NCBI GenBank assembly: GCA_043813365.1
Contig: JBDRLB010000045.1
Span: forward strand, 1 to 43,260
From: Candidatus Micrarchaeota archaeon
GTDB taxonomy: Archaea; Micrarchaeota; Micrarchaeia; Norongarragalinales; SBBD01
Length of the DNA stretch: 43,260 nt
Reading direction: 5' to 3'
Positions within the stretch are counted from its first letter, which is position 1. The number at the start of each line of letters is the position of its first letter. Below, one piece after another: positions 6,001 to 21,000 of the stretch. The position numbers are program-made.

Positions 6001-9000
6001 ATCGTGCATCCGGACGTTGTTTTCCCGGATTCCATGAAAATCGATTATGAGAAAGTTGCACAGGGAGTGGTTGAGGGGGTAGTGGTGGAGAAAACCGAAG
6101 AGCAGAAGGCTATTGAGGAGGAAGCCGAAAAGAAAATGAAGGAGAAAATTGCGGCCGCAAAGAAGGAAGCGAAGGAACGTGCAGAAAGAAGGAGGAAATT
6201 CCATAAGCCTGTGAAGAAGAAGCCCACTTACGAGGCGGAAAACCTCATCAAGAGCGCCGAGGAGCCCTCCCACAAGCCAGCTGAAGCTGCAGGTGAAAAA
6301 CCCGCGCACCATGAACACAAGCCGGCGGCTGAGGCAAAGGCTGCAAATGAAAATAAGCCTGCGGAAGGCGAATCGCACGGTGAAAATCCAGCCAAGTAGC
6401 CATTTTGCATATTATCGTGATTTTTATGGCAATTGTCAAGAAACGGGATTTGAGGGCAATGAGCGTTGAAGAGCTCAAAATCAAACTGAAGGAGACCGAA
6501 CTCGCATTCATGGAGGAAAGGGCGAACATCAAGGGAGGGAAGAGGCAGAAGCAGATCAAGTACAAACCATTGAGGAAGCTGAAAGCCCGCATTAAAACAT
6601 ACCTTCACCAAAGGGGAGTTAAAACCTGATTTTTTGGAGGCATTCCAAGTGATCCAACCAAACCTTTTTTAACCAAGGGCGGCTAACACATATTACAAAT
6701 AAAAAGAGGATATGACTGATGCCCGGGATTTGTCCAAAATGCGGCCTTCCGCTCGACATTCACGCATGTGACTCACTCTCAAAGGAATCGGTTGCCCAGA
6801 TCCGCGTCTATACCACCAAGAGCCGTTACCAGAAGCTGGTTACTGTTGTGGAGGGGCTGAAGGGCGAGGAGCTGGACAAGGCCACCAAGGAGCTTAAGCA
6901 CAAACTGGCCTGCGGCGGCACCCATAAGGACGGACTGATAGTTCTGCAAGGCAACCATAAGGAGAAGACTGTTGATTACCTAGTCAAATTAGGCTACCCG
7001 AAGGAAATCATCAAACTTGGCTGATTTTCTCGATTAGCAGTTTAAGCATTTTCTACTCCCCTAATTTGCGGATTATCCCTTTCGTTGCATCAACTTCAAC
7101 CTCATCCCCGTCCTTGAGCCATTTGGTCGCTATTTTGGTGCCTATGACGCAGGGGATTTTCAGCTCCCTGCTGACTATCGCGGCATGGCAGGTGACCCCG
7201 CCCTCATCCGTCACAATTGCGCCCGCTTTTTTCATTGCCGGCACTATGTTCGGGTTGGTGGCCATTGAAACAAGAATGTCGCCCTGCTGCATTTTCACCA
7301 TATCGGATGCTTTGCCGATAATTTTTACAACGCCCCGAACCAAACCGGGGTACGCAGGAGTGCCCTTCAGTTCCTTGAGGTTCATGTCCGCCTCCTCATG
7401 CACAACCAATTTTGAATATTTTTCCGCTTCCTTCCCAACATAAATACGGAATCCCTTCTCATCGCAAATCGTGACATTGTGCTTTATGCGCTCATTCAGC
7501 AAATCCGCATCAGCAGTCCCTTTTTGGAGCCACTCCCTTATTTCCGAATTGGTTGCATGCCTCACTTGCTTTGGGGAGAGCTCCAGCCGCTTTGCAAATT
7601 CCCGTATAAGCAGATCGGAATTCCGCGAACCAATGAAAACCGAATCCTTCCTGAGCCCCTTGAGATAGCTGAATTTACGCGCAACTTCGCACCAATATTT
7701 TTCTTCGGAAGAAAGGTTGAGATGCTTTTCAACATCGCGCTGCTGCTTTTCAATCTCCTTCCCATGCGCAAGAAGTGCCTCCTTCTTCCTTTTCCCATCG
7801 GTTCCCTGCTTCAATTCGCTCCGGAGCAAATCGCAGAAGAAGCGGCCATCAGCGAGGTCAGGCCCGTCGTAATGGAAGTTGATCCAATCGTATTTCTCAA
7901 CGTGTTTAAGAAGGAAGGAGTTGATAGCGGGGATTTTATGCAAATTGGTGATGATGCCCTCCAGCTCCATGCTGAAAATCAGCGTTGCTTCCTTATCCTC
8001 CTGTATTTCCTCCAAAATTTTGAAGAATTCTATTTCCTGTTGCTGCAGGAATGAAAGTTCAATTGGCGCTCCAAGGGTGCCGAACGCCTCTCCGGCTGAA
8101 ATCCCGGAGTTGCTTGCCTCTGCCCGCTGCTCCAGGAAAGCCATAATCTTGTTGGTGAGCATGAAATGGCCGAAATCCGCCAAATTGACGATGTCGCCCC
8201 AGCCGTTCATCCATTCCCACTTGTCCAGTAGGGAATCGTAAAGGTCGCACAACTGACCATTTTCAATTTTCGCCAAATCCATTCCCATTATTTTTTTTGA
8301 GAGCTCTTGGACTTCCTTTGCTGTTTTTTCCTGCCCATCATAGGTTTCCATCAGGAAGGCGGGTTTTTCCAGCCTTTTCAGCACGATCTTGCCCAGTTCG
8401 TCCCACTCGATGATTTCCCCGTCCGTTCTAGCGCAGTAGTACCGATGCGCATCCTTGCCATCCAATAGGAGGGTATTATTGGGGACGCCGATGAGTTTCT
8501 CCAGCTTATAATGGGAGCCGCGGATATAGCAGCAGGCGTGGACATATAGGGACGAATGGTCTTCCGCGAATTTCTTCCATTTTTTCATCAGAATCCTCCT
8601 TGATTTCCAAATAGAGTTATTGAAAAATTACCGGCATATGAGTTAAAATAGCTATCTAAGAAGGAGGCTCCTCTTCCTTTGAACCGCAGTTCCGAATCCG
8701 GTGCCGATCCCGTATTTTTTGCGGATTGCCTCATATGCGGCTTCGGTATGCTTGAACTCAGCTGCGACCCTTTCGCCCATGATCTCGTTTTTCCTATCGA
8801 CCCAGATGATTTGGAAGGGAAGCGATTGCATTTTCAGCAGCACGGCAAGCGCAAGGTCCGCAATGAGCATTTCCCTGACGTTCTGCCACTCATCTTCGTA
8901 GCTTTTGACAATAAGTTTGCGCTCCTTCAGGAGATCCAAAAAGAACCCAGAATAGCACGCTGCCGTTTTTTCCCCTCCATAGGGGATGCTGGAATACATC

Positions 9001-18000: not shown

Positions 18001-21000
18001 AGATCGAGTGCGGGTGCGATCCAAGCGTAGCCGCGCATTTCCTTGCACCGCTTGCAGTAATCAGAATAATAAGTCCAAAGTTGTGCATTGGATTTGGAGG
18101 CTAGGGTTATGGACGATATTTCCCCGGTCAATTCCAGCATCCTTTTGCCTAGCCGGTAAGTCTCCTTGATTGCATGCTCGACAAAATCAGGATCGGATGC
18201 TACCTTTTTGCCCAGTATCTCAGCTACTCGTTGGGTGTCGCCCTCAATCTCATAAAAGCCCCACGCGTCCCCCTTGAAGGGGTACATCAGCCCCTTATAG
18301 CTTGCGCCGAGCGCTTTCTGCATGCTGCTGTTCTTCCCGCAGCCGGATTCGAAAAGGAAAATCGGGAACAGGCTCGCGTCGTTCCTGATGTCTACCTTCA
18401 CCCATTTTTCCACGCGTACCCCTCAAAATATGTTAAATAGTAATATTGCAGGGAGTTATTAAATAATTATACCCCCGATATAGGGGTTTTAGAGCTCCTC
18501 CCTGAGCGACGCCTTTATTATGGCGCTTTCGGCCTTCCTTAAATGCTCGCGGAAGGTGCTTTCGTCCACACCTTCCTTTTTTGCAACCTCTTCCAGCGAT
18601 TTCTTCCTTGGGAAATCATAGTACCCTTCGGAAGCCGCTTTTTTAATTGCTGAGAGCTGCTTTCCTGAAAGCCTGCCGAAAACATTGGAGATGAACAGGT
18701 CGATGGGCTGCCCATGAATCCCAAGGACCCGCACTTTCACGCCCTTGATTTTTGAAATATGCTTCGCCAAATCCTTCAGGTGCTTCTTGTCCCAGCTCGC
18801 AATGGTCCAGAATTCGTATCCTCTACGGCCGATTATGGGCTTGATGAACAGCACTTCGGAGTTCATCACCTGCGCATTGAACGCATCCAGACTCTCATGC
18901 TGGTAGAAAACCTGGTTGCCCTCGACGGAACGCACCTTGCTTCCGAAATGCCCCACAATCAGTTTCAAGTATATTTCCTTGTCGGGCCCCTGAACCAGCA
19001 CTACCTTGTTCACGAACGCCTTCCCATCCTTCTTGAAAACGTTCAGGTAGTAGGAGGCAATAGTCACATCATAGTCAGCGCTGCCTGCAACTATGACGGA
19101 TTTTTCACGCTTCAACTTTAACTCTGCTACCCACATAAGGACACACTAGAATTGGTAACCCCGTTCGTGGAGCGCCTTTTCGCATTGCTCAAGCGACTGG
19201 AAATGGATTCCGCCAAGGCCCGCCTTTTTCGCGCCATCGAGATTTTCAGGCTGGTCATCAACCATCACGGCATTTTGCGGGGAAACCCAGATGCGGCGGC
19301 AGATTTCCTTGTAGGCCTGCGCATCAGGCTTCTTCATGCCGATGATGCTGGAGGCGAACTCGAAATCAAAAAGGGAATTCAGGCCCATCCTCCTCGAGAA
19401 TGGCTCGTGCGCCTCCCAGTTGTTGTTCGTGAATAGCACTACTTTGTTGTTTTTCTTCAGCCGGTTTATGAGCTGGCGCATTCCTCTCCGTTCATGCAGA
19501 ACTCCCTTGTAATAATCATCTGCCGTTCCAGCAGAAACAACTCCGACGAAATCGAGAATCACCGCCTTTCGGAAAAAGAGGAGCTTGAAATAGGGGTAGA
19601 TGAAGAGTGAAACAAGGTAGGAAATGAGGAGCCAGAGAGCGATTGTGTTCAAATTATCGAAGGGCGCCTCGAAAGTAAACAATGCCGCCACGAAAATGAT
19701 TGCAGTCATCACTCCCGTCCAGTAGTCGCTTCGGAACATATGGGAAAAGGATGGTTTTTTGTGAATAAAAAGATTGGGATTGGAGGAATGGGTGGGCGAA
19801 GGCGGATATGTGAATAGGCTAGATTGTGGTAATCGGCCGGCTTTGGACTATGTAGATTTTACCCGCTTCCACCGCGTACTCGATGTCCTGCGGCTTTCCG
19901 TAGTGCTTTTCGATGGAAATGCAAGTTTTTGCGAGGGAAATGATGGATTTGCCATCGAGTTTCTGCTTTGAGCGATTTTCAGCAGGCACAGGAACCTCTT
20001 CTGTTCCCACTTGTTTTCCCTTGATCACTTTCATTATCATTTTTTCCTGCTCATTGACGGAAATGTCGCTCAGGGAAAGGTCTTTCTTTCCAACAACATA
20101 ATTGTCCGGCGTGACTAGGCCGCCAACAACCGCTTCCCCTAATCCGAAAGCGGCCTCAATCACCATCTGGTTAGCATCCTTAGTGACGGGATGCACAGTG
20201 AAGACCACACCGGCAACTTCCGAATTGATCATTTTCTGCACCACAACAGCAACTGATACTTTTTGCGAGGAAAGCTTTTTCTCTATGCGGTAAAAAATTG
20301 CGCGCGGCGTGAAGAGGGAGGACCAGCACATCTTCACCGTGTCCAGCAGATTCGCCCTCTGGATGTTCATGTAGGATTCAAGTTCGCCAGCCCAGCTGGC
20401 TGCTGCGGCGTCCTCGGCAGTTGCTGATGAGCGCACTGCAACAAATTTTGCATCCAGGGAATCGAATTGGGAAAGGATGGCGTTTTCAACATCGGTGCTA
20501 ATCTTCCCTTTGGCAATCGAGGCGCGGATTTCCTTCGATGCGGCGTCAACGGTTTCGGTTTTATTGATGTCAACTGTTTTGAGCATTTTTTCTATTTTTC
20601 CGGAGAGGTTGTTTTCATTTATGAATGTTTCGAATGAATCAACCAGGACGACGAATCCCGGCGGGACAGGAATGCCCGCATTGAACATCTCCCCCAGCTG
20701 AGCTCCCTTGCCGCCTGCGATTGAAACGGATGACTTGCTCAATTTTTGGAACGGCAGCACGTAATTTGGCATTTCATTCACCCCAAATTTTTTCAGGTCT
20801 CGAGGGCAATTTTCCCCTTGGAATACGAGAGCTTCAATTTGAAATCCTCCAGCAGCTTTTTCTGGATTTCCTCATCGGGCAGTTTCTGCTCCTTAATATC
20901 CAGAGCGGCCTTCAAGAGCTCATCGATGTGCTGGAAGTTCTTGTACACATAATCGCCCGCCTTCTGGTAGGAGACTATCTCCTCATCGAATTTCTTTAGG

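Follow-up and report, generated by a model that had tools for sequence, protein, structure and literature searches.

A candidate split dikinase system in a Micrarchaeota archaeon: one stand-alone ATP-grasp gene and fourteen rifampin-phosphotransferase-like acceptor genes

Could one ATP-grasp gene serve a whole set of dikinase acceptor genes? The question is raised by a locus in the genome of a tiny, symbiotic archaeon, Candidatus Micrarchaeota archaeon (G000; the 39 relatives searched are cited by similar G numbers). The window analysed was a stretch of 43 260 nucleotides of contig C45. A tandem array of seven paralogous genes had been described there at 7053–18413. Seven minus-strand genes were indeed recovered, but the array is split by a HAD-like gene (Table 1). 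Along the translationally coupled run that starts at family gene 7, the successive junctions measured −4, −4, −4, −4, +2 and −4 bases, and the start of the HAD-like gene overlaps the gene upstream by 4 bases. When the seven array proteins (482–511 aa) were searched against Pfam, the sole match in each was the C-terminal PEP-utilizers domain (PF00391, E 2e-26 to 7e-25), as first reported.

Table 1. Coordinates of the features of the locus and of the family copies elsewhere in the genome
Feature	Contig	Position	Strand	Remarks
Family gene 1	C45	7053..8588	−	511 aa; RPH-type substrate domain and His swivel; PF00391 at 434–504
HAD-fold gene inside array	C45	8652..9461	−	269 aa, divergent; motif I D-F-N-G-T
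Family gene 2	C45	9458..10906	−	482 aa; PF00391 at 405–475
Family gene 3	C45	10909..12438	−	509 aa; PF00391 at 432–502
Family gene 4	C45	12435..13943	−	502 aa; copy used for AF2 model
Family gene 5	C45	13940..15454	−	504 aa; PF00391 at 427–497
Family gene 6	C45	15451..16944	−	497 aa; PF00391 at 420–490
Family gene 7	C45	16941..18413	−	490 aa; PF00391 at 414–484; opens translationally coupled run
One-component regulator	C45	18489..19136	−	N-terminal sensor-like domain and HTH_10; PF04967 E 9e-17
HAD-IA phosphatase-like gene	C45	19146..19739	−	PF00702 E 5e-17; hydrophobic N-terminus; motif I D-F-V-G-V
Stand-alone ATP-grasp (PPDK_N)	C45	19819..20781	−	320 aa; PF01326 E 4e-99 over residues 20–319
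Ordinary PEP synthase	C45	39045..41492	−	815 aa; PF01326, PF00391 and PF02896
Family copy	C43	1791–3302		phmmer
Family copy	C44	23530–24987		phmmer
Family copy	C44	25020–26459		phmmer; one in-frame TAG
Family copy	C32	1321–2853		phmmer
Family copy	C55	1–1158		phmmer; clipped by contig end
Family copy	C53	6073–7530		phmmer
Family copy	C53	656–2128		phmmer; weak, E 6e-11
15th ORF, swivel-only	C47	2416–2880		

Genome-wide phmmer added seven copies outside the array, which brought the total to the fourteen claimed by the initial annotation; the swivel-only ORF on C47 comes on top of these, and the in-frame TAG noted earlier was found in one copy. Over the 91 pairs of copies, mean identity was 20% in the N-domain and 56% in the His domain, close to the 19% and 53% given before. 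The T-[SC]-H motif had been credited to all copies. It was present in 12 of 14, the two C53 copies reading L-S-H, and the catalytic His in the G-G-x-x-x-H swivel loop is kept in all 14. Homologues carrying generic names only were counted at 3118 in DPANN and Patescibacteria, in line with the earlier figure of more than 3,100.

The fold was examined on an AF2 model of family gene 4 (pLDDT 94.9, pTM 0.92), another paralogue than the one used previously, and the RPH-type fold was reproduced. The best Foldseek match was RPH (5fbt, E 3e-14). With VIA, residues 2–502 were placed on residues 321–867 of RPH structure 5hv1 (Z 20.5, rmsd 4.9, 439 residues). No solved structure other than RPH aligned over the entire family protein. 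The family profile extended to RPH residues 651–866 (E 4e-27), phosphate-binding block 9 included. There, Q303-D304-x-R306-K307 of family gene 4 is aligned with R666-E667-x-x-K670 of RPH, residues described as holding the phosphate of rifampin-phosphate in the cited part of PMC4844700. Among the 14 copies, the position of R306 is R or K in 13 and that of K307 is K or R in 11; the acidic residue is not constant, with D in 5 copies. From the model and the Pfam result, the family proteins are predicted to be acceptor subunits in which a C-terminal swivel follows an RPH-type substrate domain, with no ATP-grasp. RPH itself differs in being one chain of three domains, with 15–17% identity to the family; its ATP-grasp is similar in sequence to the stand-alone protein (about 298 bits). 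The NCBIfam models of rifampin phosphotransferase (NF041857 and NF000283) were rejected for the family proteins, which scored 49–73 bits against a cut-off of 999 and over their C-terminal part only, and for the ATP-grasp protein (271 bits against 999).

The only stand-alone ATP-grasp gene of the genome is the one next to the array, as had been stated, but a second PPDK_N domain lies within the PEP synthase of the same window; no other was found in the genome. Homologues of the stand-alone protein are 58–75% identical across Micrarchaeota and Patescibacteria. On renewed searching they were again found in 13 of the 39 relatives, exactly one per genome; G000 and each of these 13 thus hold one such gene, against 2 to 31 family matches (PEP-synthase swivel included). 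Adjacency to a family gene, claimed for nine relatives, was seen in all nine of the retrieved loci that hold the ATP-grasp gene, so that a stand-alone PPDK_N gene beside an acceptor gene is found both here and in 9/9 loci. Another set of 80 loci came from named genomes, chiefly of Patescibacteria; in 50 of 78, the ATP-grasp gene had a swivel module at most two genes away. Taken with the RPH fold over the whole protein, the profile match and the invariant His, this synteny supports the earlier proposal of a split RPH-like dikinase.

The pairing does not look obligate. A one-protein query among the 39 relatives again left eight expanded genomes with no clear stand-alone ATP-grasp. Five of the eight were searched anew by family (PF01326). 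G011 then showed a PPDK_N of ambiguous class, which shares 47% identity with the query and lies in a frame of 378 aa. In G006, G012 and G014 (18, 4 and 15 family matches) this search found one PPDK_N each, in a PEP-synthase frame of about 780–820 aa; the G006 assembly has 8 contigs and is about 90% complete. At least three relatives thus speak against an obligate pairing: either some genomes can do without a stand-alone partner, or their swivels are charged by a different module.

Conservation of the His domains had been taken as a sign of a shared partner. This argument did not stand: in 13 of 14 copies the swivel shares 45–59% identity with that of the PEP synthase encoded in the same genome, and the family swivels are as similar to the latter as to one another; the conservation is not specific. 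Fused genes offered other evidence. Among the long homologues of DPANN and Patescibacteria, of which 120 of 299 found were listed, 91 of the 120 join one ATP-grasp to 2–5 swivels, one has a single swivel with its ATP-grasp, 28 have 2–6 swivels without any, and none of the 120 holds two or more ATP-grasp domains; kin and metagenome bins are non-independent samples, so such counts overstate the support. One fusion that was checked is an intact 1805-aa ORF (table 11). In seven fusions examined, the N modules are 20–32% and the swivels 36–69% identical, the pattern seen among the G000 paralogues. The fused ATP-grasp is nearer the stand-alone gene than PEP synthase in 83 of 89. With these fusions, the idea of one kinase module for many substrate modules is better supported than by synteny alone; the 28 multi-swivel homologues that lack an ATP-grasp weigh against it, as do G006, G012 and G014, which have no such partner.

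It seems fairly probable, then, that this is a two-component dikinase system for small molecules with multiple heads, many or all of the 14 acceptors sharing a single ATP-grasp protein. ATP would be bound by the 320-aa protein. A family swivel would dock on it and be charged in trans, its His taking the β-phosphate, with release of AMP and Pi. The swivel would then return to its own RPH-type N-domain and phosphorylate the small molecule held there, most likely on a hydroxyl, each acceptor having its own substrate.

An arrangement in which the ATP-grasp protein works with a core paralogue only is unlikely. The remaining copies would then be charged by the PEP synthase, either through its own ATP-grasp or, rather in the manner of PTS Enzyme I, from PEP by way of its PEP-binding domain. 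A core group is seen: in a tree of 67 members, family gene 1 fell in an eight-row clade (support 99) with copies adjacent to HTH_10 or ATP-grasp genes in seven other genomes (G001, G002, G003, G005, G006, G016 and G019), and it belongs to an orthologous group so placed. The PEP synthase could be an alternative charging module, given the swivel identities above, the best PDB match of the family swivels (the archaeal PEP synthase 8a8e, E 1e-50) and the three relatives in which it holds the only PPDK_N. The residue two before the His also fits, being the PEP-synthase-type Thr in 12 of 14 copies (Leu in the others), whereas Met is found there in HpeH and in its aligned homologues (cited part of PMC12167813). 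This division of labour is opposed by the 91 listed fusions, with their predominantly stand-alone-type ATP-grasp, and by the Patescibacteria loci, where the ATP-grasp gene is commonly flanked by two to five modules. The family proteins are not PEP synthases themselves. Swivel and ATP-grasp are closest in sequence to 8a8e (177 and 350 bits) and share the T-[SC]-H motif, but the PEP/pyruvate-binding domain PF02896 is replaced by an RPH-type acceptor domain, and scores reached only 110–137 bits against the cut-offs of 598 and 740 (TIGR01418 and NF005057). With PF02896 present in 39045–41492, the genome owns a normal PEP synthase.

The same tree bears on the many-headed reading. G000 copies are never each other's nearest kin, the genome label needs 14 changes, and all seven array copies have a closer relative in another genome. 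Family gene 2 is nearest to a gene of G004, family gene 3 has an ortholog in the G006 array and family gene 6 has orthologs in G004, G006 and G009. By sequence, the paralogues are ancient orthologous groups and not a recent burst, a pattern that we count in favour of distinct functions.

The system is accompanied from genome to genome by HTH_10 regulators and phosphatase-like genes. The structural neighbours of the regulator at 18489–19136 are Bat/DmsR-type regulators; its three paralogues in the genome all lie directly upstream of family genes, and it was present in 7 of 10 relatives' loci retrieved. These paired one-component regulators probably control expression. The 269-aa protein had no Pfam or NCBIfam match; its Atlas feature score was 0.94, with TM 0.53–0.61 to HAD families, and its homologues, in 6 of 39 relatives, adjoin family genes in all six. 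The HAD-IA protein has two hydrophobic N-terminal stretches, judged by eye. In 5 of 9 loci of relatives, its gene adjoins that of the ATP-grasp, and 13 of the 39 relatives carry a homologue, each of these genomes having at least two family matches. Phosphatase-like neighbours were seen in 35 of the 80 ATP-grasp loci (13 of HAD type, 6+6 of His_Phos_1, 4 acylphosphatases and 15 of a 200-aa group that hhalign connects to His_Phos_1 at 96.5%). Phosphorylation is probably transient, the HAD-type phosphatases encoded nearby taking the phosphate off again. Two observations count against the proposal: no downstream enzyme (carboxylase or ligase) that would explain a transient phosphate was found in the locus, and in neither HAD-like gene does motif I have its usual second Asp.

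These neighbours also bear on a defence role with the same chemistry, which is quite unlikely. Antibiotics or toxic small molecules from hosts and neighbours would be inactivated by phosphorylation, as rifampin is by RPH. The nearest solved structure is that of a resistance enzyme, and strongly diverged binding domains with inducible-looking regulators would suit a detoxification repertoire, but clustered phosphatases would reverse an inactivating phosphate, and the RPH-model scores given above are far below cut-off.

The split itself is already known. The two-component RPH homologues HpeHI, CreHI and PpsAB, published in 2025 as a subfamily, use the same two-step mechanism and form a transient complex only (cited part of PMC12167813). 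The reaction expected of this type is ATP + X + H2O → AMP + Pi + X-P, by way of a phospho-His. The present system resembles them in its adjacent genes for a separate ATP-grasp subunit and an RPH-type substrate/His-swivel subunit, in a pathway phosphatase (HpeD; in the Hpe pathway a NagD-like phosphatase goes with the dikinase, cited part of PMC9618137) and presumably in two-step phosphotransfer. Those systems, from aromatic catabolism in free-living bacteria, pair their two subunits 1:1, with masses near 40 and 70 kDa. The present kind occurs in DPANN and Patescibacteria; here a single ATP-grasp faces 14 genes, each for a protein of some 500 aa, and in one relative the number of such genes reaches about 30. 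Fused 1:n polyproteins exist, and no carboxylase or other catabolic genes lie alongside. NCBIfam PRK08296 models matched the family swivel part only, below cut-off. HpeH (which has no solved structure), CreH and PpsA share about 45% sequence kinship among themselves, and the family is likened to them by architecture. The 1:n arrangement appears to be new and, if true, amounts to a split, many-headed relative of rifampin phosphotransferase, one ATP module charging many heads.

HpeH alone moves phosphate from 4-phosphoacetophenone to acetovanillone (cited part of PMC12167813), which makes conceivable an ATP-independent shuttle through the His (X-P + Y → X + Y-P) with no ATP-grasp partner. Some genomes and the 28 listed multi-swivel homologues without ATP-grasp would fit, but we consider this very unlikely, as the ATP-grasp is tightly syntenic and fused with modules across domains and is highly conserved (63% mean column identity over 56 sequences). 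Conversion to a DNA- or ligand-binding regulator, on the model of PspR, a haloarchaeal PPS-like and RPH-like repressor reported to bind a promoter (cited part of PMC10948481), is most improbable, given the catalytic His in all 14 copies, the basic pair in most, the separate HTH_10 regulator already paired with family genes and the ATP-grasp fusions that point to catalysis.

Two further comparisons were made. The three-domain superfamily also includes PigC, RedH and HapC, whose NCBIfam models matched the swivel and the ATP-grasp. These prodigiosin ligases condense two pyrroles after phosphoryl activation. They are single chains; the family scored far below cut-off, and nothing here points to a ligase role. 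Chain 9goj (387 aa), which we take from its length alone to be possibly HpeI, scored 253 bits against the ATP-grasp profile.

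The genes considered here lie on contig C45 of a 1.34-Mb genome in 78 contigs. The nearest relatives in databases bear the name Candidatus Micrarchaeota, a DPANN group. From the RqcH-like ORF through the last family gene (the core copy), every gene is on the minus strand. Family genes encode proteins of about 500 aa made of a rifampin phosphotransferase (RPH)-type substrate domain (N-domain) and a C-terminal phospho-His swivel, without ATP-grasp. Junctions in the family run measure −4, −4, −4, −4, +2 and −4 bases, and the run therefore looks translationally coupled. PF00391, at the last ~70 residues, is the sole Pfam match of every family protein. 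In NCBIfam, they are matched in their C-terminal part only, by the models of PEP synthase, RPH, PigC/RedH and PRK08296, all far below the cut-offs. The RqcH-like ORF, which represents a shortened RqcH or one that is split, also adjoins the ATP-grasp gene in three relatives (G001, G002 and G003).

Features of contig C45 discussed in the text
Feature	Position	Strand	Remarks
N-terminal RqcH-like ORF, 331 aa	20793-21788	-	below-cut-off match to archaeal RqcH, N-terminal part only (model positions 1-155 of 645)
Stand-alone ATP-grasp, 320 aa	19819-20781	-	PF01326 (PPDK_N), E 4e-99, whole protein covered
HAD-IA-like gene (membrane-type HAD), hydrophobic N-terminus, 197 aa	19146-19739	-	motif I D-F-V-G-V
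HTH_10 regulator	18489-19136	-	
Run of six family genes	16941-18413 down to 9458-10906	-	includes modelled copy, 12435-13943
HAD269, 269 aa	8652-9461	-	no family match; motif I D-F-N-G-T
Seventh family gene (core copy)	7053-8588	-	63-base gap before; PF00391
Cdc6/Orc1 gene	36463-37581		
LAGLIDADG-like ORF	37654-38481	+	free-standing, between Cdc6/Orc1 and PEP synthase genes
Three-domain PEP synthase	39045-41492		of the normal kind

Fourteen family members were found by phmmer among all ORFs of the genome: seven on C45 and the others on C32, C43, C44 (two), C53 (two) and C55, the C55 copy being truncated by the contig end. Together they occupy about 21 kb, or 1.6% of this reduced 1.3-Mb genome. 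ATP-grasp was found in two ORFs only, the stand-alone gene and the PEP synthase. Mean pairwise identity (91 pairs) was 20% for N-domains and 56% for swivel domains; the outlier is a C53 copy (656-2128), with a long branch and an N-domain identity of 11-16%. The swivel His is kept in all 14 copies. The motif before it, given in the initial annotation as T-[SC]-H throughout, has this form in 12 copies and is L-S-H in the other two. The arrangement described there, a family array with a stand-alone ATP-grasp gene, was otherwise borne out with minor corrections, and its interpretation in part. One C44 copy (25020-26459) has an in-frame TAG, and a single one also occurs in a family copy of a relative (G030:C6:209-1576), thus in two different genomes; the stop codon could mark a pseudogene, reflect a sequencing error or be read through. 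A swivel domain alone (PF00391, E 1e-27), without substrate or ATP-grasp domain, is encoded on C47 (2416-2880, plus strand; locus L006), where the ORF overlaps the end of an opposite-strand EamA transporter gene. The protein is likely ~106 aa long; it shows 42-53% identity to the family swivels in 13 of 14 comparisons and 52% identity to that of the PEP synthase.

The 12435-13943 product was modelled by AlphaFold2 from a 72-sequence alignment (pLDDT 94.9, pTM 0.92). Six RPH-Lm entries took the top Foldseek ranks (5fbt, E 3e-14). A scan of 48,161 chains, independent of Foldseek, aligned model residues 2-502 with residues 321-867 of RPH 5hv1 (Z 20.5, rmsd 4.9, 439 residues aligned); the other strong structural matches covered the swivel only. 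By sequence, the family profile best matched archaeal PEP-synthase swivels (8a8e, E 1e-50) and extended to RPH 651-866 (E 4e-27). Residues Q303-D304-x-R306-K307 of the model align with RPH R666-E667-x-x-K670, which, according to PMC4844700, hold the phosphate and position His825. Among the 14 paralogues the first basic position is R/K in 13 and the second K/R in 11, and the acidic position is variable. The best-kept polar residues over 50 N-domains from all subgroups were E323, R327, E342 and R360.

In known relatives, the phosphate goes to a hydroxyl group of a small molecule that is hydrophobic or aromatic. The split architecture has been published before: a subfamily of two-component small-molecule dikinases, comprising HpeHI, CreHI and the phenylphosphate synthase PpsAB, was named in 2025 (PMC12167813). 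In that article, the ATP-grasp protein HpeI is a homologue of the RPH ATP-grasp, and HpeH one of the rifampin-binding and swivel domains; the His is essential, and the two proteins form no stable complex (PMC12167813). The article also gives Met at the place of the regulatory Thr of PEP synthase in HpeH and its aligned homologues, whereas the family proteins retain the PEP-synthase-type Thr. A search for a PSRP-type regulator of this conserved Thr found no PF03618 match in the genome (88.6% complete). The mode of action was classed as that of a two-component RPH-type dikinase. By analogy with RPH and HpeHI, ATP would be bound by the stand-alone ATP-grasp protein, and the swivel His of a family protein would attack the beta-phosphate, the gamma-phosphate being lost as Pi and AMP leaving. 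The swivel would then go back to its own N-domain, where conserved basic residues would hold the phosphate until it is handed to an acceptor bound in that domain. What appears to be new relative to the known split is the 1:n gene ratio, the single-chain multi-acceptor forms and an occurrence mainly in DPANN and Patescibacteria. Among 1.84 billion representative clusters, a profile of the N-domain alone matched 6831 at E up to 0.001, of which 2347 reached E 1e-30 or lower; clusters with a source name carried generic labels only and came mostly from DPANN and Patescibacteria. Open-licence PMC and bioRxiv texts, supplements aside, yielded nothing on the family or on DPANN/CPR multi-module fusions; an earlier mention is possible.

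Family matches in 40 related genomes ranged from 1 (the swivel of PEP synthase alone) to 31 per genome. The stand-alone ATP-grasp gene, defined as a 319-401-aa frame (one case cut by a contig end) with at least 55% identity, was present in 13 of 39 relatives, as a single copy each time. Synteny was sampled in ten loci from ten relatives; in all nine that hold the ATP-grasp gene, it adjoins or is near a family gene. A further set of 80 loci came from named genomes, Patescibacteria for the most part; all 80 matched ATP-grasp genes found there were stand-alone. For 50 of 78 such loci, a swivel module was at most two genes away, and within 8 kb the modules averaged 2.3.

Longer proteins were also searched, giving 299 homologues of 880-2510 aa, of which the 120 listed were dissected with local HMMs for the three domains. 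Among these 120, exactly one ATP-grasp was combined with 2-5 swivels in 91 proteins and with one swivel in 1; 28 had 2-6 swivels and no ATP-grasp, and none had two ATP-grasp domains in one chain. Where an ATP-grasp is present (92 proteins), it leads the chain in 85. One fusion was checked (1805 aa): its ORF is intact under table 11, the ATP-grasp is followed by three acceptor modules and the next gene encodes another single module. In seven fusions examined, N modules were 20-32% identical and swivels 36-69%, the same contrast as between the 14 paralogues. In 83 of 89 cases the fused ATP-grasp was nearer the stand-alone protein (51% on average) than the N-domain of PEP synthase (44%). These fusions are Rosetta-stone evidence for a 1:n relation of ATP-grasp to acceptors.

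The proposal of one kinase module for many acceptors thus drew support from fusions, 1:n counts and synteny; relatives without a stand-alone partner speak against an obligate one. PF01326 was searched in five relatives with several family genes. G006 (8 contigs, ~90% complete, 18 family matches), G014 (15 matches) and G012 (4 matches) have one PPDK_N each, located in a 778-821-aa frame, i.e. the PEP synthase; in the array of G006, the regulator and the HAD-like gene are present and the ATP-grasp gene is absent. The initial annotation had also taken the conserved His domains as a sign of a shared partner. This sign is weak, because in 13 of 14 copies the swivel is 45-59% identical to that of the genome's own PEP synthase. 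Charging of some or all family copies by the PEP synthase is therefore a live alternative. If one ATP-grasp protein does charge many acceptors, this would be a modular route to kinase diversity undescribed for dikinases, and the giant one-ATP-grasp multi-acceptor fusions would be its single-chain form.

A recent lineage-specific burst of family genes was ruled out by a maximum-likelihood tree (quick search, LG+G4) of 67 members, comprising the 14 copies of this genome and 53 of 13 relatives. No two copies of this genome were nearest relatives, and its label required 14 changes, the maximum. Every array member has an ortholog in another genome (in G002, 67% identical for 7053-8588 and 63% for 12435-13943). 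The G006 array has five or six orthologous members in common with the C45 array, plus the HAD-like gene. In G002, the core copy is the sole member at the syntenic locus (between SUI1 and RqcH), and two further orthologs lie elsewhere in that genome. The family therefore consists of old orthologous groups, separately kept and shuffled between loci, which fits distinct specificities.

Precomputed PF02350 (Epimerase_2) and PF01989 labels occur on many multi-module proteins (P0244-P0363). A sugar substrate, considered from the PF02350 (UDP-GlcNAc 2-epimerase) labels, was rejected since the match falls inside the swivel domain; it was found in 3 of 5 long proteins scanned, was weak, near or below the 30.6-bit cut-off, and no single stretch passed.

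The HTH_10 regulator is of the Bat/DmsR-like one-component type. Its three paralogues in the genome are each directly upstream of family genes (C45, C43 and C44), and the gene is present in 7 of the 10 fetched loci of relatives. Two other ORFs, C32 604-1314 (236 aa) and C53 61-732 (223 aa), occupy this place directly upstream of family genes; they have no Pfam match and no similarity to the HTH_10 regulator. A Sigma-70 promoter/terminator scan, a model unsuited to an archaeon, gave fewer sites than shuffles. Among sequencing runs, no RNA data set containing the sequence was listed, and DNA runs contained it in small shares only.

HAD269 resembles HAD proteins by language-model features and structure (TM 0.53-0.61, a lead only), and its homologues, found in 6 of 39 relatives, are all beside family genes. 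The membrane-type HAD adjoins the ATP-grasp gene in 5 of 9 fetched loci; its homologues occur in 13 of 39 relatives, all with at least two family matches. By eye, the hydrophobic N-terminal ~55 residues of its product look like two membrane helices. In neither HAD-like gene does motif I have its usual second Asp. Cluster representatives scanned against Pfam identified phosphatase-like neighbours in 35 of the 80 named loci, counts that are not independent as the genomes are related: HAD (13), two His_Phos_1 groups (6 each), acylphosphatase (4) and a 200-aa group (15), linked to a His_Phos_1 group by hhalign (96.5% probability). Recruitment of unrelated phosphatase types suggests that phosphate removal is part of the system. 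In the Hpe pathway, a NagD-like phosphatase strips the phosphate after a carboxylation step (PMC9618137).

Paired sensors and phosphatases suggest an inducible and transient phosphorylation, serving trapping, activation or protection and not terminal modification. A wider reading, which we put forward tentatively and hold to be less likely than not, is that DPANN and Patescibacteria use a hub-and-spoke phosphoryl distribution. One ATP-grasp charging station would serve up to ~30 separate or up to 5-6 fused heads, each with its own small-molecule pocket, together with phosphatases of at least three unrelated superfamilies. It might be an all-purpose, ATP-driven device that traps or activates host-derived metabolites and then releases them, replacing specific kinases and transporters absent from these reduced genomes. 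The substrates could reveal which host compounds ultra-small symbionts take up or alter, and finding them would add small-molecule phosphorylating enzymes for biocatalysis.

Some neighbouring genes were recorded besides. After the ATP-grasp gene, 17 of the 80 named loci encode a ~500-aa low-complexity protein that matches no family, and a PrgI-family protein (L042 is an example, with 9040-10536 and the gene beyond it); this is probably a conserved flanking order of related genomes. The ~500-aa protein was rejected as a hidden family member (hhalign probability 0.2%). In one genome only (L009, G039:C6, 9681-15865), histidine-utilisation genes (aromatic amino acid lyase, urocanase and amidohydrolase) lie amid regulator-plus-family modules, near the ATP-grasp gene. 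A Fic/DOC-domain gene (L014, G016:C23, 3123-4010) separates the ATP-grasp gene from two family genes.
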